Assembly (NCBI RefSeq): GCF_044324875.1
Contig: NZ_CP172188.1
Direction: 5' to 3' (one strand)
DNA length: 64,000 nucleotides
Origin: Escherichia coli
GTDB lineage: Bacteria; Pseudomonadota; Gammaproteobacteria; Enterobacterales; Enterobacteriaceae
A program made the translations under genes and the position numbers. The number at the start of each line of letters is the position of its first letter. Positions within the stretch are counted from its first letter, which is position 1. Below the pieces are notes generated by a model. The model did not search any database. It saw only the letters and a list, made by a program, of their open reading frames with translations, and had not been told where the DNA came from. Below are positions 1 to 40,561 of this stretch, in pieces.

Positions 1-192
1 ATTTTCGGCGCCGCGATCGATAAGGTCGCCAACCGATATCAGTAAATCCTGTGTCGGGTCAAAATCCACACGATGGAGTTCATTCATAAGTAGGGTGTAG
101 CAACCGTGCAAATCACCAATAACCCATATGTTTCTGTAGCCTGAACCATCAATACGGCTATATAAATTCACTTCATGCAGAGCCTGGATCAT
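1..192 (-). CDS. Ser/Thr protein phosphatase (lambda PPase/PrpA-like metallophosphatase), 3' end cut by window edge
   Basis: Minus-strand ATG at 192 overlaps upstream stop (ATGA); N-terminus read from DNA has GDLHG and GDLIDRG metallophosphatase motifs. Confidence 0.7.
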
Positions 193-500
193 GCGGCAAC
201 CTTCTCCCGCAGCCAGATACAAACTGGACCATCTTCAGTGTCATGAATAGAGCCAACAAACCAGCCTTCACCCTCTGGTCGCTCCGGTTCCCAGGCGGCA
301 ATATCGGGACCAGCTGCGTCCAGATCAAAATCATCTTCATCCATACTGCGAATAGTCCACTGAAGATTATTTTCCTTCATCCAGGCGTCAAATTCCTCAG
401 TGGATATATATTCACGACCTGCGCAAAACTTTTCATACTCCGGATGTGTCCAGCAGCCATATTCATCACGTTCTACCGGCATTTCTTTAATGATGCTCAC
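189..500 (-). CDS. hypothetical protein (103 aa), acidic
   Basis: ORF translationally coupled (start/stop overlap) to neighbours in a minus-strand operon. Confidence 0.45.
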
Positions 501-721
501 TCTTCATCCTCCAAGTCGGCAACGGCATCCATCACATCAGAACCGCGAATAACCTCAAAAGCACGGCAGGCCATTTCAAACACCTGTTGTTCTTGCGGAT
601 GCGGTGACTCCCAATACTTAAAACCAGGTCGATGCTCGTAACCCATCATGGAATAAAAATCGCCAGCAAGTTCAATCGCGGCATCAACAAGTTCGCGATT
701 TGTCATCGTCTGTTCTGTCAT
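497..721 (-). CDS. hypothetical protein (74 aa)
   Basis: ORF with ATGA-type overlap to flanking genes in same operon. Confidence 0.45.
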   Translation of the reverse strand: MTEQTMTNRELVDAAIELAGDFYSMMGYEHRPGFKYWESPHPQEQQVFEMACRAFEVIRGSDVMDAVADLEDEE

Positions 722-993
722 TTGGTTTTCTCCTGTCTGAACATCACTATCATCAGGTCGCCTTTTGTCGCTATCCTCGCTGTTGTGCCTGGTTCAATGC
801 GGCTAAGTTCAAATGCGTCATAGAACGCCTCCAACGCTTTCTGGCGTTTTTCCTGTTTGCGGCGCTTTCCCCACTGCTTTAGAAAAACAGAGGCCGCCCA
901 CTTCCCCGCACTGAACATGATGTAAAACCAACCGAGAAGTGCCAGACCGGTATTTAGGAGCGTATCGATCGTTATTGTCGTGTCGATATTCAC
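718..993 (-). CDS. small membrane protein (91 aa)
   Basis: Hydrophobic N-terminal segment followed by basic tail; coupled to flanking genes. Confidence 0.45.
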   Translation of the reverse strand: MNIDTTITIDTLLNTGLALLGWFYIMFSAGKWAASVFLKQWGKRRKQEKRQKALEAFYDAFELSRIEPGTTARIATKGDLMIVMFRQEKTK

Positions 994-1706
994 TGGTTGC
1001 CTCCTTTGCGAAGCTGGTCGGCGAACAAACGTACACCAGACGCTTCACTGCGTAGAAACTTAACGGCATAATCAAAACCACCTCGTTCTGCGTCGTCTGC
1101 TGCGTTGTCGAGGTTATCTGCGTACATCTCTACCCCCTGCGCACGCACTTCAGCCAGGAAAGCGTCGGTGGCTGGGGTTTCAACACGGATGCTGTCGCGC
1201 AAGATGAAAAATGCATTGAGCATTCCTGTCTCTGGCACTTCATCCTGATGCTTCTCATACGCATCAAGAGCCTTCATCATCTCAGCTCCGAATGGTTGAG
1301 GGTGCACAGACTTCAGCTCCGCATTCTCCGCCGCCAGCACCACGCGTTCGCTCTCCAGTTCTGCAATGCGCTGTTTTGCGGCATCAAGTTCAATCGATAA
1401 TTTTTCCAACTGCTCTTTATGCTTCTTGTATTCCTGATATGCGTGCCAAGACTGACCTTTGCGCACACTATCCGTGATATCAGTAATCTGTTCTGGTGTT
1501 AGCGTGGTCAGTGGCTGTGCTGGGAAAATCAGCACTTTCCCGGAATCCCAATCAAAACCAGCGTGAATTGACTGAACCTCAACTGAAGGTGTTGAACCAA
1601 TGCTGCCAGGCGAATGAACAACGATCGTTACATCCATATCGCGACGATGGCTGTGGTTGTTGGACAAAATACGATTCACCAACTCAGAAAATTTGGAAAA
1701 TTTCAT
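990..1706 (-). CDS. hypothetical coiled-coil protein (238 aa)
   Basis: ORF 990..1757; likely start is ATG at 1706 overlapping the upstream stop (ATGA); central coiled-coil segment. Confidence 0.5.
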
Positions 1707-2065
1707 GCTGATTCCCTTTGCTCTTCCTGGATAATGTTGTTGCAATCTTTCACGCACTCGTTGCAGATGAAAACGTTGTCCCCGGCAATTAACTTTTTAA
1801 CGGTGTGCTGGGATTTGTTGCAGAAGCTGCAATAAAGCGTTGGACTGGCTGATACGGATGGTGCGCCAGATGTCAGCCGCGCGATGTCGTTCTTGCGACG
1901 CAATATCACACGGCTGCACTCGACCAGCATCTCCGGGGATATCTCCTCCTCCGTAGCGAGCGTTTCTAATCGTTCGAGTATGTGGAAGGCTTTTTCCTGG
2001 GTAATCCTGGGTAATTCAGCGTTACGCTCTGCCAGTTGTGCGGGCGTTAAACCTTCAGACTTCAT
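1703..2065 (-). CDS. ClpX-type C4 zinc-finger (zinc-binding domain) protein
   Basis: C-terminal [36 protein letters not shown] closely matches the ClpX N-terminal zinc-binding domain motif; no AAA+ module. Confidence 0.6.
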
Positions 2066-2339
2066 ACACTCTCCTTTCGAAATAAACGTACTGATTAATC
2101 ATGCCCAGGGGCATTTCGAGTTTTTCCGCGATCTCACGGCGGGGAACACCACACTGATGAAGCTGCCGTGCCAGTTCTATATCGCTCTGCCGGTATTTGG
2201 CTGACGGATGAAAGTCACCTTTCAGAATCATTCTGATCCCCAGTTCCCGCGCTTTAGTCCTGACAGCATCTCCGGTACGCCCGATCAGCCTCCCTATACT
2301 CTCGACTGTCATAGTTCCGGCACACTGGCGGAGTATCAT
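2055..2339 (-). CDS. putative DNA-binding regulatory protein (94 aa)
   Basis: ORF 2055..2372; likely ATG at 2339; helix-turn-helix-like segments; first gene of the operon downstream of the IS. Confidence 0.4.
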
Positions 2340-2519
2340 GATTTCTGCCCTTCTCCATCCCCGCCATCTCACGCTGACATCCTCTTAGACATAAACTCAA
2401 CAAAACGAACTGCATCTTCAGAAACAACGCCGCATGACTTCAGCGAAAAACCGCCGAGAACCCTCGCCCAATGCGGGCGGGGAGGAAAGGCGGAAAAGCC
2501 CGAAGGGCTTTAAAAAAAA

Positions 2520-2945
2520 TCATTCCGGCGTTGACTGGTTTTGAACGTAAGCCCTGAGTGTTTCAATCGTTGCTCCTCCGGTACTACATGCAAAGTAGGC
2601 TCTCGACCAAAGCAAGCCTGTTTTGCTCTGTGTTCGTAAATGTGTGTTTTGTTGACGTAGCAGACGTGACGATACTGATTTCAAATTATTCACCATTACG
2701 CTGACTGCCAGCTTTGGCGGATAGGCAACCAGTAGATGTACATGATCTGCTTCTCCATCCATTTCAAGAATTTCGCATTCAAGTTTTGCAGCAGCGGAAC
2801 AAAAAGCTTCCCGTAGTTGCTCTATCATGCAGCCGTCAAAAAGTTTTCTGCGGTATTTTGTAGTGAAAATTAAATGCACAACGAGCTTACTCACGCTGTG
2901 ACGTTTCCGAAGGAATCCCTCAAGGGATTCATGCTGTTCGCTCAA
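2520..2945 (-). CDS. tnpA: IS200/IS605 TnpA (Y1 HUH transposase)
   Basis: HVHLLV (HUH) motif, KYRRK motif, about 140 aa; followed on the minus strand by a hairpin plus T-run. Confidence 0.85.
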   Translation of the reverse strand: MSEQHESLEGFLRKRHSVSKLVVHLIFTTKYRRKLFDGCMIEQLREAFCSAAAKLECEILEMDGEADHVHLLVAYPPKLAVSVMVNNLKSVSSRLLRQQNTHLRTQSKTGLLWSRAYFACSTGGATIETLRAYVQNQSTPE

Positions 2946-3001
2946 TTGAAAAAACGCCTCAATTTGTTAAAATGATTGAATAATATCAATGAGCGCTGAG
3001 T

Positions 3002-4180
3002 ATGTTAAGAGCGACAAAAGTACGCATATATCCCACTACTGAACAGGCTGAGTATCTCAATGCCCAGTTCGGTGCGGTACGTTTTGCGTACAATAAAGCT
3101 CTTCACATCAAAAAACATGCTTACCAGCGATACGGGGTGAATTTAAGTCCGCGCAAAGATTTAAAGCCGTTGCTGTCTATAGCGAAGAAGTCCCGTAAGT
3201 ATGCCTGGCTCAAAGAGTTTGATTCAATGGCATTGCAACAGGCAGTAATTAATCTTGATGCGGCATTTTCCAACTTTTTTAATCCGAAGCTGAAAGCACG
3301 GTTCCCGACGTTTAAACGTAAACACGGGAGACAATCGAGCTATCACTGCACCGGAATCAAGGTGCTGGATGATGCCATTAAGATCCCTAAACTGAATCTG
3401 CCGATAAAGGCGCGTATACACCGTGTAATTACGGGAAAAGTAACGAGCATAACAATTACTCGCAATGCCGCTGGGGAATATCACGCATCCATCCTTTGTG
3501 ATGACGGTATTCCCGCGCCAGAGAAACCCACGTATCTGGAAGAAGAAAAGATTACTGGTGTGGACATGGGATTAACAGATTATGCCATCAAATCGGATGG
3601 TAATAAGGTTGGTAATCCTCGTCATCTCATCAATGCCAGTCGTAATCTGCGACGCAAACAAAAAGCGTTATCCCGCAAGCAAAAGGGAAGCGCGAACCGT
3701 AAAAAGGCCAGAATCCGTCTGGCAGCGTTACACGAACGGGTGGCTAATGCCCGTGCTGATTTTCAACACAAGCTCTCTCGTGCAATTGTTGACGAAAACC
3801 AAGCGGTAATTGTCGAGACGCTGAAAACAGCCAACATGATGAAAAACCACAATCTGGCAAGAGCGATAGGTGATGCAGGCTGGCATAGCTTCATCACAAA
3901 GCTGGAGTACAAGGCAGCGGAAAAAGGCGTTCACCTGGTAAAACTCGACCAGTGGTTTGCCAGTTCGAAAACGTGCCATTGTTGTGGTTACAAAATGCCG
4001 GAAATGCCGCTTCATAAACGCATCTGGCGATGCCCTGAATGTGGAGCAGAGCACGACCGCGATATCAATGCGGCGCTCAATATCCGGCAAAAAGGAATAC
4101 TGGAACTAAAGGCGGCGGGACTCGTCGTTTCTGTCCATGGAGGCCAGCGTAAATCCGTCGAACAGACGGTAGCGGCCTGA
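3002..4180 (+). CDS. tnpB: TnpB (OrfB) RNA-guided nuclease of IS200/IS605
   Basis: 392 aa; C-terminal zinc finger CHCCGYK...CPECGAEHDRDINAALNI typical of TnpB/OrfB; divergent from tnpA. Confidence 0.9.
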   Translation: MLRATKVRIYPTTEQAEYLNAQFGAVRFAYNKALHIKKHAYQRYGVNLSPRKDLKPLLSIAKKSRKYAWLKEFDSMALQQAVINLDAAFSNFFNPKLKARFPTFKRKHGRQSSYHCTGIKVLDDAIKIPKLNLPIKARIHRVITGKVTSITITRNAAGEYHASILCDDGIPAPEKPTYLEEEKITGVDMGLTDYAIKSDGNKVGNPRHLINASRNLRRKQKALSRKQKGSANRKKARIRLAALHERVANARADFQHKLSRAIVDENQAVIVETLKTANMMKNHNLARAIGDAGWHSFITKLEYKAAEKGVHLVKLDQWFASSKTCHCCGYKMPEMPLHKRIWRCPECGAEHDRDINAALNIRQKGILELKAAGLVVSVHGGQRKSVEQTVAA

Positions 4181-4240
4181 GAAGTGGGAAGCCTCGCCCG
4201 ACAGGGCGGGGAGCAGTCACATAATTCATTGCGTCATTAG
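4060..4240 (+). ncRNA. putative TnpB-associated omega RNA / right-end element (boundaries approximate)
   Basis: Inferred from established TnpB biology (guide RNA from the tnpB 3' end and right end); subterminal hairpin at 4193-4212. Confidence 0.3.
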
Positions 4241-4769
4241 GTAGCGGATTAGTTGGTTCGGCATTTGCCAGGGATTGAGATAAACGCGTGATTAATTTGA
4301 CCATTCTCCGCTGCCGGAGGTTGTATCCTTCAGCTAAAGACAGGTAACTGGAAAGGGTATTGCTTAAGCGGGCGCGAAGCTGATCCGTGCCGTGACATTC
4401 AATAGCAACATCACGTAACGCATCGACCAGTTCACGGTAAAGATGCGCTGCCATTCTGCAATCTGTGTCAGATGGTGCTTCATAAATTACCGTCAACCCC
4501 AGTTTTTCAGCCAGAGCGTGTTCTGCACGTGCTCCTGCGGACACATCCCATCCCTTAAGCAGATAGATCGCATCAGCAGAACGCACCATTGCCAGGCAAA
4601 TATCCATGTATTCACTCTGGCAAAGGCCACCAGGTAACACAGCTGGATTCAGAACGATATGCCCTTCAGACATCAGCTCGCTCGCTTTCGCATTAAACGC
4701 CGCACGGTTGTAGTCTGGATAACCAGTCATCGGCCCCGCGATGTAAATTTTCAAAACACGTTTCACCAT
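4077..4769 (-). CDS. DUF4406 / nucleoside 2-deoxyribosyltransferase-like protein, 3' end interrupted by the IS right end
   Basis: N-terminal KIYIAGPMTG...GWDVSAGARAEHALAEKLGL fold signature; reading frame runs without stop across the IS boundary (about 4225), so the last ~50 codons are IS-derived. Confidence 0.5.
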   Translation of the reverse strand: MVKRVLKIYIAGPMTGYPDYNRAAFNAKASELMSEGHIVLNPAVLPGGLCQSEYMDICLAMVRSADAIYLLKGWDVSAGARAEHALAEKLGLTVIYEAPSDTDCRMAAHLYRELVDALRDVAIECHGTDQLRARLSNTLSSYLSLAEGYNLRQRRMVKLITRLSQSLANAEPTNPLPNDAMNYVTAPRPVGRGFPLLRPLPSVRRIYAGLHGQKRRVPPPLVPVFLFAGY

Positions 4770-4962
4770 CAAAATTTCCCCAAAATCGTGACGCAAAACA
4801 TAAGCACTGCGAAAAGCTCAATACCAAGCTCAAGTAGCGCCAACGCCCCGAAAAACAACACATAGAACAGGCCAATCTCATTCACAGATGGCTGGTGGAT
4901 CGCACTTAAAGCTATAAGCATCATGTCCTCCAAACAGTTATCAGGAATGATATTAATGTTTT

Positions 4963-4982
4963 GTGTTAGAAAATCAATTTTG
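4963..4982. promoter_or_regulatory. operator-like motif (TGTGTTAGAAAA...TTT family), upstream of ref
   Basis: One of seven occurrences of a shared motif, all intergenic; loosely resembles the P1 C1 operator. Confidence 0.35.
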
Positions 4983-5041
4983 AATATCTAACTGTTTTGA
5001 TCAATCATAGAAAAATAGCTGAAAAGTAAGAGGCAGCCATC

Positions 5042-5620
5042 ATGCAGAAACAGAGCTATTGGGAGAAACAGAGACAAAAAGCCATGCAAAAATTGGCTGA
5101 CCCAGCCTGGCGAGAGGAACAAAGGGCAAAGCGCCTTCAACAAGCTCAACGCCAGCAGCAGCGAGCGAGAGAAAAAGCCGCATCGCCTGAATATCGGCAA
5201 AAGAAAATTGAAAAAGCAAAGCAATATGAACAGCGGAGAAAAGATAAAGCTGTATCCGCTCCGCCCAAAAAAACACGCACGTCACGCGGCCTGAAGGGCA
5301 GATCACTCACAGCCGATGAACGCCGGATACAGACCGCTATCGGTACTCTCCCCTGCATTGCCTGCCATATTCACGGGCAACATAGCCCAGTGGTATCCCT
5401 GCACCATATCTTCGGGAGAACGGCAGAGAACGCACATAAATATGTCCTCCCTTTGTGTAAATGGCACCACCAGTACGCAGCGCCAGCCGAGGTCCGAGAA
5501 CAATATCCCTGGCTGGTCCCTGTTCATGCTGATGGAAAAATAGGCGGAAAAGCAGATTTCATACGGCACAATGCCGATGAAATGGCGTTGTATCAGATGG
5601 CGATTGAATTAATAAATTAG
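5042..5620 (+). CDS. ref: Ref-like HNH endonuclease (recombination enhancement function)
   Basis: Highly charged K/R/Q-rich N-terminus followed by HNH core CIACHIHG...SLHHI...CKWHH; architecture as in P1 Ref. Confidence 0.6.
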   Translation: MQKQSYWEKQRQKAMQKLADPAWREEQRAKRLQQAQRQQQRAREKAASPEYRQKKIEKAKQYEQRRKDKAVSAPPKKTRTSRGLKGRSLTADERRIQTAIGTLPCIACHIHGQHSPVVSLHHIFGRTAENAHKYVLPLCKWHHQYAAPAEVREQYPWLVPVHADGKIGGKADFIRHNADEMALYQMAIELIN

Positions 5621-5631
5621 TTTTCTAACAT
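5621..5631. promoter_or_regulatory. operator-like motif copy (ttttctaacat)
   Basis: Core TTCTAACA motif immediately after the ref stop. Confidence 0.25.
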
Positions 5632-5951
5632 TTTAAGTTGAATTGTAAATTTCTCCGATGTACATTCACTACCGATTGGCACACCGGTCAACTTTTTGAG
5701 ACAAACTGTTTAGTTTTTCGTATTATTGCCCCCGCCATACCTATGGCGGTGCAATATAGGTGGCTGAAAAGCCCCCGTTGACTCACGGTGTTCCAGCCTT
5801 TATTGCGCCGCCACCAGACCGTGGAACAGTCGATGGCGGCTCCGAAAGCAAGGAGTCACTACACTATGAACAACTACAGTCTTTTCCCATCACTCGTCGT
5901 CCACCACTCACGCGATAATCTGCATTCTTTATTCGCGCTGGGGGAGTCAAA

Positions 5952-6119
5952 ATGACTGTTCGCTACCTCAACTTTCAAATCAAGAACATTACTGGCGGTT
6001 GCTATGACTGGTTTGTCACTCTCGGAAAAGAAGTGATTACCGGGAAGCTGGATGAAGTGAAAGCTAAAGCAATGGCCTACGCCTGCAAGCAAGCCCGGAA
6101 GAAATCCGCCAAAGCATAA
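5952..6119 (+). CDS. small hypothetical protein (55 aa)
   Basis: ATG preceded by GGGGAG; overlaps (ATGA) a 29-codon ORF at 5866..5955 that has an AAGGAG RBS; below the 60 aa ORF-track cutoff. Confidence 0.3.
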   Translation: MTVRYLNFQIKNITGGCYDWFVTLGKEVITGKLDEVKAKAMAYACKQARKKSAKA

Positions 6120-6431
6120 AATACTGACTGTTGCGCCCTGGCATTATCGTGGGGTATATTTCTACGGCACCTTAGAAAAACGGGTGCCGGGATTGGAACC
6201 CCGGATAATGCAAAAGGCGACACAGACGCCGAAAGCGTCTTTTCTTGTGTCATGCCATCGCACAGCCATACGTAGCGTTTAGCTCAGAGATCAATGGTAG
6301 TGCTGGCTGGGCTGCCGAAAGGCAGGCCGGTTCCCTTTTGCGCCGGTAGTTCCAACCCAGTCAGTGCTACCGCCATTGAGATTGGAACCTCACGCGGTAG
6401 CTCCTTAAATTAGCAAAAGGAGGCTGCCAAT

Positions 6432-6647
6432 ATGGCTACTATCCCTACCCCAACTCATTCTGAATTTATCTGGCGTTTCTATTCCTGCCAAAAACACCTG
6501 TATATCTGCGTCATGGCTGCAACCGAAGCAGAAGCTCGTTCATACCTTCCTGAAGAACCCTGCATTTTTGCCGCACGCTTCACTCTTGATGCGATGGAGA
6601 TCCTCAATTACTGGAATCTGCCAATGAACTGCGTGGAGGTGCACTGA
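6432..6647 (+). CDS. icd: Icd-like small protein (host cell division inhibitor family)
   Basis: About 71 aa, paralogous to two other copies in the window (EFIWRFYSC...AATEAEARS...CVEVH); stop overlaps the ant start. Confidence 0.7.
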   Translation: MATIPTPTHSEFIWRFYSCQKHLYICVMAATEAEARSYLPEEPCIFAARFTLDAMEILNYWNLPMNCVEVH

Positions 6648-7588
6648 TGAATCTGTCCATCTCTCAAAAAGCGACAATGACCAGCATTGAGATCGCGGAA
6701 CTGGTAGGAAGTCGCCAAGATAGTGTGAAGAGAACTATCGAAACACTGGCTAAAAAGAGTGTGATCCAATTTCCACAATCTGTGGAAATTGAAAATAAAC
6801 AATCAGTTGGCCCTCGTCGATTTTCCAAGGCTTACATCTTTGAAGGCGAACAAGGCAAGCGCGATAGTATCATTGTCGTCGCACAGCTCTCTCCGGAATT
6901 CACCGCCCGGCTGGTGGACCGCTGGCGCGAACTGGAGAATGCCAGGGGACCGTTAAAATCAAAAGCCGAAATCCTGGCTGAAATGGCGCAAATGCATCTT
7001 GAGCATGAACGCCGGATCAACGCCGTAAATGCCCAGGTAGCCGAGGTATCAGCACAAGTATCGATGGTCGCTGAAACACTCGAGCAAATAAAGAAAGGCA
7101 ATATGCCGGAAGGCTACATTGGCTACCGCCAGCTGGCGGCGAAATGCGGCCTGACTGAAGCCAAATGTCGCAACCTGGTTAACGCTTACCGGATACCCAC
7201 TGATACGCATGAGTTTTTGACTCCCGACGGTTTGCTTGCGCGACGCTCAATTGTGGCCCTGGCCCCCTTCCGGAAAGCCTTTAAGCAGGTTATGTCGGAG
7301 GCAGAACCACGCAACAAACGCTGGTATCATCCAAAGATGGGGATGTTTCAGGCAATCCACCATCCTGTGCCTGAAAGTCCAAAGGCAAACCTGTCGTTGC
7401 ATACCGCCAGAGAGAGGATTAAAACAGGGTATGCAATCGTATGCCGTCGAGCATCTTGGCCTGAAGGTGTATGGGTATGGCCCGAAGGTGGATCACGAAA
7501 GCACTGGCGCACTATCCGGGATGGGAAAATCCATGCGATTGATTTAGCTCCAGAGGATGTTGTTGCTACGGACTGGATTGTTAGTTAA
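6647..7588 (+). CDS. ant: Rha-family phage antirepressor (Ant), copy 1
   Basis: N-terminal Rha-like TSIEIAELVGSRQDSVKR; C-terminal ~200 aa near-identical to the copy at 39035..40033. Confidence 0.8.
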   Translation: MNLSISQKATMTSIEIAELVGSRQDSVKRTIETLAKKSVIQFPQSVEIENKQSVGPRRFSKAYIFEGEQGKRDSIIVVAQLSPEFTARLVDRWRELENARGPLKSKAEILAEMAQMHLEHERRINAVNAQVAEVSAQVSMVAETLEQIKKGNMPEGYIGYRQLAAKCGLTEAKCRNLVNAYRIPTDTHEFLTPDGLLARRSIVALAPFRKAFKQVMSEAEPRNKRWYHPKMGMFQAIHHPVPESPKANLSLHTARERIKTGYAIVCRRASWPEGVWVWPEGGSRKHWRTIRDGKIHAIDLAPEDVVATDWIVS

Positions 7589-23315: not shown

Positions 23316-24977
23316 TTAACCTAACTTCGCCCAGGTATCACGCAGCCCAACGGTGCGGTTAAATACCGGTTTTTCCGCCGTAGAATGGCGGCTATCGAGG
23401 CAGAAGTAACCTTCACGCTCAAACTGGAATGCTTTACCCGCAACCGCATCTTTCAGCGACGGTTCAGCAAAGCCCTGTTTGATCACCAGCGATTCCGGGT
23501 TAATCACCGACAGGAAATCATCCGCAGCACCTGGGTTAGGCACGCTGAACAGACGATCGTACAGGCGGATTTCAACCGGCAGCGCATGTGCCGCGCTCAC
23601 CCAGTGAATAACGCCTTTCACTTTACGACCATCTGCCGGATCTTTGCTTAAGGTGTCGGCGTCATAAGTACAGAAGATGGTGGTGATATTGCCTTCGGCA
23701 TCTTTCTCCACGCGTTCAGCCTTAATGACGTAAGCATTACGCAGACGCACTTCTTTACCCAGCACCAGACGTTTGTACTGCTTGTTAGCTTCTTCGCGGA
23801 AATCGGCGCGGTCGATCCAAATCTCACCGCTAAACGGCACCTGACGGCTACCCATTTCCGGTTTGTTCGGATGGTTCGGCATGGTGACCATTTCGCCTTC
23901 GCCCTGGTAGTTTTCGATAACCAGTTTCACCGGATCGATAACCGCCATTGCGCGCGGCGCATTTTCGTTGAGATCTTCACGGATGCAGGATTCCAGCGAC
24001 GCCATCTCAATGGTGTTGTCCTGCTTGGTCACGCCGATGCGTTTGCAGAACTCACGAATAGAAGCCGCAGTGTAACCACGACGACGCAGACCGGAAATGG
24101 TCGGCATACGCGGGTCATCCCAGCCTTCAACGTGTTTGTCGGTCACCAGCAGGTTCAGCTTACGCTTGGACATCACGGTGTATTCCAGATTCAGGCGCGA
24201 GAATTCGTACTGGCGCGGGTGAACAGGAATGGTGATGTTGTCCAGCACCCAGTCGTACAGGCGACGGTTGTCCTGGAACTCAAGCGTACACAGAGAGTGC
24301 GTAATACCTTCCAGCGCATCGCTGATGCAATGGGTGAAGTCGTACATCGGGTAGATGCACCACTTGTTGCCAGTCTGGTGGTGTTCAGCAAATTTAATGC
24401 GGTACAGCACCGGATCGCGCATTACGATAAATGGCGACGCCATGTCGATTTTCGCACGCAGGCAGGCTTTACCTTCTTCAAAACCACCGGCACGCATTTT
24501 TTCGAACAGCGCCAGGTTCTCTTCAACGCTGCGATCGCGGTACGGGCTGTTTTTACCCGGCTGCGTCAGGGTGCCGCGGTATTCGCGGATCTGTTCCGGC
24601 GTCAGTTCGTCAACATACGCCAGGCCTTTGTTGATCAGTTCAACAGCATAGGCGTGGAGCTGATCAAAATAATCGGAGGAGTAACGGATGTTGCCAGACC
24701 AGTGAAAACCTAACCATTCAACGTCGTTTTTAATCGACTCGACGTACTCGATATCTTCTTTTACCGGGTTAGTGTCGTCGAAACGCAGGTTGCACTGGCC
24801 TTTATAGTCCTGGGCGATCCCGAAGTTCAGGCAGATAGATTTCGCATGACCAATATGCAGATAGCCATTCGGTTCCGGCGGGAAACGGGTATGTACTGTG
24901 GTGTGCTTACCACTGGCCAGATCTTCATCGATGATCTGACGAATAAAGTTAGTCGGGCGGGCTTCTGCCTCACTCAT
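23316..24977 (-). CDS. glnS: glutaminyl-tRNA synthetase
   Basis: 553 aa; class I aaRS HIGH ([13 protein letters not shown]) and KMSKS-like (VMSKRK) motifs; essentially collinear with E. coli GlnS as recalled from memory. Confidence 0.95.
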
Positions 24978-29846: not shown

Positions 29847-30019
29847 GAACATAAACAATAAAATAAATCATCAAAAATTTGATGTTGATCTTCCATGTTT
29901 TCAGGCTTATATTCACGCCGTTGCAGCAAATTCTGCGACCGGGTTTAGCAGCCTGAATGTACATGCGGACAACCGCAGATATCCGATATTGCGGTATTTT
30001 TGTGTCCGTAAAACCATGT

Positions 30020-30110
30020 TACGCCCGAATTATGGTGGGGCGTGATGGGGAGGCTTCGGCCTGCTGGTTTCATGTACGCCAGTCTGCTAACCCCGTCACG
30101 TCCTGCCACC
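30020..30110 (+). ncRNA. c4-like antisense RNA region of immunity module 2 (boundaries approximate)
   Basis: Element ctgctaa (about 30083) is complementary to ttagcag at 29945 and 30116 in the icd leader; compensatory changes in module 3. Confidence 0.45.
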
Positions 30111-30160
30111 CGTTTAGCAGCGGGTAGCAGGTTGTTAAACCTGTACATGAGGCCGTAACT

Positions 30161-40248: not shown

Positions 40249-40299
40249 AGTTACGGCCTCATGTACAGGTTTAACAACCTGCTACCCGCTGTCAAACAG

Positions 40300-40390
40300 G
40301 TGGCAGGGCGTGACAGGGTTGACAGACTGGCGTACATGAAACCAGCAGGCCGAAGCCTCCCCATCACGCCCCACCATAATTCGGGCGTAA
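40300..40390 (-). ncRNA. c4-like antisense RNA region of immunity module 3 (boundaries approximate)
   Basis: Paralogous to 30020..30110, with the pairing element changed to ctgtcaa and both target sites changed to ttgacag. Confidence 0.45.
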
Positions 40391-40561
40391 CGTGGTTTAC
40401 GGACACAAAAATACCGCAATATCGGAAATCTGCGGATGTCCGCATGTACATTCAGGCTGTCAAACCTGGTCGCAGAATTTGCTACGACGGCGTGAATATA
40501 AGCCTGAACATCTGGAAGATCAACATCAAATTGTTGATGATTTATTTTATTATTCATGTTT

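Follow-up and report, generated by a model that had tools for sequence, protein, structure and literature searches.

How does a DUF4406 gene of an Escherichia coli phage-plasmid come to run into an insertion sequence (IS), and is the long open reading frame (ORF) that results a native gene or a product of transposition? The question is raised by a 64,000-nucleotide stretch of E. coli DNA (contig NZ_CP172188.1), the whole of which is referred to here as the window and in which an initial annotation, made from the letters alone, had placed an IS605-type element with TnpB, inserted into a P1-like operon, at positions 2440-4769. The answer that we favor, with a probability of roughly 0.95, is that an intact, recently mobile IS of the IS605 group inserted 3' of a TTCAG pentanucleotide and split the DUF4406 gene of a D6-like phage-plasmid. 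The interval initially proposed does contain the element, but the IS proper, which is complete, spans 2444-4220 (1,777 bp, with its top strand being the plus strand of the window), and the remainder belongs to the 5' portion of the DUF4406 gene, whose ATG lies at 4769.

Both ends of the IS, 2444 and 4220, were fixed by alignment with the IS-free plasmid pF719-4, in which window positions 1700-2443 and 4217-5700 are contiguous, and with an identical copy of the element in the norW gene of E. coli TUM9803. With slashes marking the junctions, the empty site in pF719-4 reads ...GACTTCAG/ATAATTCATTGCG..., the flank after the junction beginning ATAATTC, and the occupied site reads ...GACTTCAG/CGAAAAACC...GCAGTCAC/ATAATTCATTGCG.... 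Compared with pF719-4, the insertion entailed neither a target-site duplication nor a deletion, both being zero. When the element was excised in silico and 60 nt from each side were joined, the product matched plasmid NZ_CP069886.1 at 120 of 120 positions, and the uninterrupted site was found in 54 PLSDB plasmids, in every case within an annotated DUF4406 gene. Comparison with IS-free relatives, NZ_CP069886.1 and pF719-4, thereby reconstructs the uninterrupted gene.

The intact DUF4406 protein of pF719-4 (WP_064752065.1) comprises 207 residues and ends in ...NDAMNY-LKSCGVVSEDAVRFVEFMSKRMSA. In the window, the native 5' part of the gene, codons 1-183, occupies 4221-4769 on the minus strand, starting from the ATG at 4769; 181 of its 183 residues are identical to those of WP_064752065.1, and the Pfam DUF4406 domain lies at residues 16-105 (E = 2e-33). 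As noted initially, the frame then crosses 4221/4220 into the right end of the IS without meeting a stop, and it terminates at 4077. The tail thus acquired, 47 codons plus a stop at 4077-4220 on the minus strand, is antisense to the 3' end of tnpB and the right end of the element, and its residues read VTAPRPVGRG...FLFAGY. The product is a chimera of 230 amino acids, which NCBI lists as WP_395762635.1 under the ordinary label 'DUF4406 domain-containing protein'. The native 3' end of the gene, 24 codons plus a stop, sits intact on the far (left) side of the IS, at 2369-2443 on the minus strand, where it translates to LKSCGVVSEDAVRFVEFMSKRMSA followed by the stop, identical to the tail of the pF719-4 protein; the insertion point corresponds to codon 184-185 of the 207-codon gene. 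The initial statement that the 3' end had been replaced is right for the protein, whose C-terminus is now encoded by the IS, but for the DNA 'displaced' is the correct word. WP_395762635.1 is a transposon-made chimera, and the true gene, of 207 codons, is split by the IS.

An ORF that continues uninterrupted over 230 codons, and that NCBI annotates as a normal DUF4406 protein, might be a native variant of the gene, with the tnpA/tnpB block ancestral to the operon and no insertion at all. Such a scenario is barely credible in view of what the relatives contain: the block is absent from the gene in 54 plasmids and phage D6, where the C-terminus is a different, conserved one, the missing 24 codons are still present and intact at 2369-2443, the block is 99.9-100% identical at 10 unrelated sites, and the chimera occurs on only two contigs, with all IS-free relatives sampled encoding the 207-residue form. 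The initial annotation had allowed for a native fusion; none of the 54 plasmids, pF719-4 or D6 carries the IS-derived tail without the IS. A BLAST comparison in which D6 homology stops exactly at the insertion point had raised the alternative of a mosaic boundary there, which was dismissed as an artefact of BLAST. A direct alignment shows that D6 has a counterpart of the tail and also of the target site, which there reads GACTTCAG/GTAATTC, differs at individual positions, and is followed at some distance by a 12-bp gap.

A different kind of error, a chimeric join made by the assembler through a copy of the IS elsewhere in the genome, could also create such junctions. Repeats of this sort break short-read assemblies, and both Logan contigs of run SRR31072984, an independent assembly, end inside the IS. 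Yet these two contigs match window positions 1-3811 and 3790-6925 at 100%, overlap each other inside the element (3790-3811), and together cover both of its junctions. The same right-end junction recurs in a second assembly (GCA_965255965.1), both junctions obey the TTCAG/GTCAC rule described below, and a random mis-join would not be expected to rebuild a perfect natural empty site (120/120). Because both junctions are covered, the right-end junction is shared with a second assembly, and the empty site reconstitutes perfectly, we consider an assembly artefact very unlikely, and the insertion authentic. The occupied arrangement was found only via an exact-protein index: no record of the occupied site was obtained from the phage, plasmid, and complete E. 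coli genome collections, and exact-pattern scans of species-representative genomes and IMG/VR viral contigs returned no right-end junction.

The element has the full anatomy of its family, in agreement with its initial description as an IS605-type element with TnpB, with matches to Y1_Tnp and three TnpB Pfam domains falling within the interval then given. The tnpA gene (2520-2945, minus strand) encodes a 141-residue Y1 HUH transposase that matches the full Pfam Y1_Tnp model (E = 1.2e-38) and is identical to WP_045145567.1; in an alignment with IS608 TnpA (E = 2.5e-21), its H68/H70 fall on the HUH motif and its Y133 on Y127, and the protein also aligns with other solved Y1 transposases. The divergently oriented tnpB (3002-4180, plus strand) encodes a 392-residue homologue of RNA-guided endonucleases, with the Pfam domains HTH_OrfB_IS605, OrfB_IS605, and Cas12f1-like TNB. 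This protein, identical to WP_045145569.1 and recorded in exactly this form on 192 contigs, aligns over its full length with the ISDra2 TnpB structures 8exa and 8h1j (E = 4e-79), and C325, C328, C344, and C347 align with the four zinc-finger cysteines of ISDra2 TnpB. Residues D188, E272, and D354 align with the RuvC catalytic triad, D191, E278, and D361 in the numbering of the published ISDra2 structures. Both ORFs are full length and, according to the alignments, their catalytic residues are intact.

The termini complete this picture. A subterminal imperfect hairpin, CCTCGCCC-AATGC-GGGCGGGG, located by pattern matching at 2462-2482, begins 18 nt inside the left end; folding of 2434-2520 as DNA gives z = -3.8, and the hairpin is kept in ISEc46 and other relatives. 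At the right end, a hairpin recognized by folding, CCTCGCCC-GACA-GGGCGGGG (4192-4211), is nearly invariant across seven relatives (76-100% identity), and the IS terminates 9 nt beyond it with GTCAC. Both subterminal hairpins lie on the same strand, the plus strand, and direct comparison of the termini, CGAAAAACC... and ...GCAGTCAC, disclosed no terminal inverted repeats. The combination of a Y1 HUH TnpA, a TnpB, subterminal hairpins without inverted repeats, and motif-specific insertion without duplication places the element in the IS605 group of the IS200/IS605 family, and the intact RuvC triad and zinc finger are those of the omega RNA-associated nucleases (OMEGA, obligate mobile element-guided activity), to which its TnpB probably belongs. 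A second hairpin, AAAGCCC-TTC-GGGCTTT followed by TTCC (2495-2511, minus strand), was found by folding directly past the tnpA stop; it may act as a terminator for tnpA, but it fell short of the criteria of the terminator scan. The spacer between tnpA and tnpB and its immediate border (2946-3008) form a divergent promoter-like region, recognized from sigma-70-like consensus matches only; it contains the two best promoter-like sites of the scan, each matching at 10 of 12 positions, one directed toward tnpB (2946-2973, plus strand) and the other toward tnpA (3008-2980, minus strand). A weak outward sigma-70-like match, CCGACA-16-CATAAT (9/12, 4198-4225, plus strand), straddles the junction between the right end and the flank, antisense to DUF4406, and does not rise above chance.

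The same element was found at many other places. The copy that interrupts norW in the TUM9803 chromosome is 100% identical, and ten further places were examined at which its DNA is 99.9-100% identical, which, together with the window and TUM9803, provide 11 distinct flanks, in chromosomes, F-like plasmids (psiA-hok), P1/D6-like plasmids, and a lambdoid prophage. TCAG directly precedes the left end at all 11 distinct sites and TTCAG at 9 of them, and every copy examined ends in GTCAC. In the window, the target pentanucleotide TTCAG (2439-2443, plus strand) abuts the left end; it is the presumed site of TnpA cleavage and insertion and the presumed transposon-adjacent motif (TAM) of TnpB. Because the window holds 261 TTCAG sites, counted on both strands, the particular site occupied was not specially selected. 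Near-identical copies at many distinct sites, always 3' of TCAG, imply that the IS has moved recently. These are the marks of an IS200/IS605 element that moved recently and targets TTCAG (minimally TCAG). The element is apparently active, and its observed target is also the TAM to try should this E. coli TnpB be put to use.

The abundance of related derivatives that lack tnpA could suggest instead that the element is decayed or domesticated and immobile, its TnpB being either dead or a TldR-like regulator rather than a homing nuclease. These derivatives of ~1,336 bp (H84-H102; e.g., NZ_CP117572.1 and AP024477.1) are 89-91% identical to the IS, retain an intact tnpB and both ends, and are widespread, being common in P1-like and IncI plasmids: their neighbor is lpa, the late promoter-activating gene, in plasmids of ~100 kb (taken as P1-like because of this gene), and psiA in IncI plasmids, 3' of ATCAG. 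The element in the window, however, has both ORFs at full length, with the H68/H70/Y133 residues of TnpA and the D188/E272/D354 residues and zinc finger of TnpB conserved, both ends are intact, and copies that are 99.9-100% identical at 11 distinct sites point to very recent transposition. We therefore hold decay or domestication to be highly improbable, if slightly less so than an assembly error, and retain the reading of an intact, recently mobile IS.

Two other D6-like plasmids carry the same IS and differ from the window at its left end. In GCA_965255965.1 (CBDGJA010000029.1), the right-end junction within DUF4406 is identical, and the left end abuts another TTCAG, the counterpart of window 234-238; a stretch of 2,205 bp that corresponds to window 239-2443 and holds six genes and the displaced DUF4406 tail is absent. 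Such an outcome could result from recombination between two IS copies in the same orientation or from a TnpA-mediated reaction from one TTCAG to another. In the third D6-like plasmid, GCA_024181985.1 (BRDB01019680.1), the IS lies in the opposite orientation inside a DUF4752 gene, and 175 bp equivalent to window 736-910 are absent, a segment that is present in the IS-free pF719-4 and D6. The missing segment ends in a second TTCAG (window 736-740, minus strand), which lies on the top strand of the IS. A left-side deletion bounded by TTCAG thus accompanies two of the three D6-like insertions seen, and these TTCAG-to-TTCAG deletions might be a side reaction catalyzed by TnpA rather than the outcome of recombination between two IS copies.

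The replicon that received the IS is related to P1, as initially proposed, without being P1 itself. In the flanks, identity is 92% to phage D6 and 96-98% to many IS-free, non-mobilizable plasmids of ~92 kb from E. coli and Salmonella (rep_cluster_1704). One of the relatives, pAPEC201603, covers 84% of window 5000-29000 at 96.6% identity, including the tail, parM, glnS, and icd genes. Judged by this collinear nucleotide homology, which extends over phage and plasmid modules, the host is a D6-like E. coli phage-plasmid with P1-like modules (ref, ppp, pdcB, icd/ant, and c4). The 'P1-like operon' of the initial annotation accordingly stands as a leftward operon of a P1-related phage-plasmid, but its backbone is D6-like and not that of P1 proper. 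The next gene of this operon (2055-2339, minus strand) encodes a 94-residue DNA-binding protein and is annotated in pF719-4, where it follows 29 bp past the DUF4406 stop; the exact 94-residue protein (P0009) also adjoins tnpA in locus L026. The IS does separate DUF4406 from the rest of the operon, interposing 1.8 kb, including a tnpA co-oriented with the operon, between the 5' part of the gene and the genes downstream, on which it may exert a polar effect.

From these features, we infer the following course of events. TnpA would have catalyzed single-strand 'peel-and-paste' transposition, inserting the IS directly 3' of TTCAG on the plus strand of the window; in this family, such transposition is biased to the lagging-strand template. 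The insertion split the gene in such a way that codons 1-183 run into 47 IS codons and the last 24 codons are stranded across the element. By analogy with ISDra2 and the Geobacillus elements, tnpB and the right end would then give rise to an omega RNA, the guide of which would be the first ~16 nt of the flank (ATAATTCATTGCGTCA). TnpB armed with this RNA would cut TTCAG followed by the guide sequence, that is, the uninterrupted DUF4406 allele, and such cutting would help the IS both to be kept after excision and to spread from one plasmid copy to another. In the elements on which the analogy draws, the TnpB RNA derives from the 3' end of tnpB and the right end, with its 3' ~16 nt coming from the flank, and TnpB cuts a TAM-adjacent match to the guide, namely, the donor site vacated by excision, so that the IS is retained (PMC8612924; 10.1101/2023.03.14.532601; see also PMC5027513 for the mechanism).

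The predicted omega RNA, also termed right-end element RNA (reRNA), would extend from the 3' end of tnpB through the right end and across a ~16-nt guide, at 4070-4236 on the plus strand, with its 5' limit being approximate. Its predicted guide, ATAATTCATTGCGTCA (4221-4236), would be read from DUF4406 DNA, consistent with the initial suggestion that the guide region derives from flanking phage DNA, since the sequence just beyond the right end belongs to the phage-plasmid. The predicted target is TTCAG plus ATAATTCATTGCGTCA (in extended form, TTCAG-ATAATTCATTGCGTCATTAG), a sequence that pF719-4 and NZ_CP069886.1 both contain without change. In the window, it is approached only by the occupied site, at which GTCAC stands in place of TTCAG with two mismatches in the motif, an arrangement that would fit the avoidance of self-cleavage. 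Conservation within the IS peaks over its final ~100 nt, where the fraction of invariant columns is 0.82-0.95 vs. 0.47-0.87 elsewhere in an alignment of relatives that are 76-78% identical, and the predicted RNA folds moderately better than shuffled sequences (z = -2.2).

Several observations weigh against this account. RNAalifold analysis of seven relatives detected no informative covariation in the part proximal to the right end, because that region is nearly invariant; the few compensatory pairs all fall in the upstream coding sequence. A scan of window 2000-5200 against Rfam (E<=1) yielded no family above threshold. The identification of TTCAG as the TAM is deduced from insertion sites only. 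Promoter-like and terminator-like matches were not in excess over shuffled sequence in the scan, which makes polarity on the downstream genes a matter of conjecture.

The only Rfam match near the IS was to HgcC (RF00062), at 4121-4227 on the plus strand, with 16.7 bits against a gathering threshold of 50 (E = 0.98), and it was not used as evidence. The well-aligned part of this match is the right-end hairpin, CCUCGCCC-GACA-GGGCGGGGAG, and the score is compatible with chance. HgcC-type archaeal RNAs might themselves be right-end RNAs of TnpB elements.

If the predicted guide is correct, the IS would be directed at an allele of broad occurrence. Where the IS resides on plasmids, TnpB works against IS-free copies in the manner of a gene drive (Mears et al. 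2025 preprint, PMC11870625), and the window would offer a natural case of the guide reprogramming modeled there experimentally for plasmids, the predicted guide matching the allele of many related phage-plasmids. It is conceivable, albeit rather doubtful, that the IS, guided to the intact DUF4406 allele, could act between related phage-plasmids, either as a gene drive or as a weapon of exclusion. If this were true, IS-free D6-like genomes that are co-resident or superinfecting would be cut and then either converted to IS carriers or eliminated, and the intact allele is carried by dozens of circulating D6-like phage-plasmids.

Other parts of the replicon are also of some note. Three separate C4 antisense-RNA loci were identified (6290-6377 and 30028-30113 on the plus strand and 40296-40381 on the minus strand), with a1/b1 target elements at two of them (29907-29959, plus strand; 40449-40501, minus strand) and an isrK match beside the first (6167-6245, plus strand), all above the Rfam gathering thresholds. 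The three loci suggest that a single phage-plasmid carries three P1-type immunity/antirepressor control modules. In addition, a 553-residue ORF at 23316-24977 (minus strand) corresponds, by position and length, to glnS (glutamine--tRNA ligase) of D6-like plasmids, an aminoacyl-tRNA synthetase gene carried here by a phage-plasmid.

Overall, the insertion is an ordinary one, and the IS is of a well-understood kind; the IS copy itself is already public and sensibly annotated. Beyond the correction of the annotation, its importance is slight; mildly unusual are the direction of the predicted guide toward a common phage-plasmid allele and the left-end deletions bounded by TTCAG.

Among named elements, the nearest is ISEc46 of E. 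coli, a name that the copy compared bears in RefSeq and in the annotation of phage RCS47. The two elements share divergent tnpA and tnpB, similar hairpins at the left and right ends, an almost identical right end terminating in GTCAC, and similar lengths (1,763 bp in ISEc46 vs. 1,777 bp), but they are only 78% identical at the nucleotide level, with 82% amino acid identity in TnpB and 87% in TnpA. Furthermore, TTAG precedes both of the ISEc46-type copies examined, whereas TCAG precedes the present element. In ISfinder practice, isoforms share roughly at least 90% nucleotide or at least 95% amino acid identity; the values obtained here fall below this level of near-identity, and by these usual criteria the present IS would be classed as separate from ISEc46 and not as its isoform. 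More distant still is IS609 of E. coli K-12 (insQ), which belongs to the same family and yet has a TnpB only 28% identical in amino acid sequence and unrelated ends; a comparison of K-12 IS609 with the present element produced no meaningful nucleotide alignment, far from near-identity. The label 'IS609 transposase' attached to some of the tnpA-less relatives is hence a misnomer, the genuine K-12 IS609 TnpB being only 28% identical. A literature search on ISEc46, on IS609 with TnpB, and on TTCAG/TCAG TAMs retrieved no functional study of this IS lineage.

Elements from other bacteria supply the mechanistic frame. The TnpA of IS608 from Helicobacter pylori, the structural paradigm for these transposases, has equivalents of the HUH motif and Y127 in the present TnpA. 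We take the geometry of IS608 to match as well, with the left cleavage 18 nt 5' of the left-end hairpin and the right cleavage 9 nt 3' of the right-end hairpin. The two differ in target (TTCAG vs. TTAC in IS608) and in gene arrangement, which is divergent here and co-oriented in IS608. ISDra2 of Deinococcus radiodurans, the reference element for RNA-guided TnpB, shares with the present IS a Y1 TnpA, a pentanucleotide 5' of the insertion, the lack of a target duplication, subterminal hairpins, and a TnpB that can be aligned over its full length. ISDra2 resides in another host clade and has TTGAT as its target (PMC8612924), as opposed to TTCAG, and in the present IS tnpA and tnpB are divergent. 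The plasmid gene drive of Mears et al. (PMC11870625) offers a parallel in biological setting: although the replicon in the present case is a phage-plasmid and the likeness is drawn from the DNA, in both a TnpB-bearing IS resides on a plasmid, with its predicted guide reprogrammed to a common IS-free allele.

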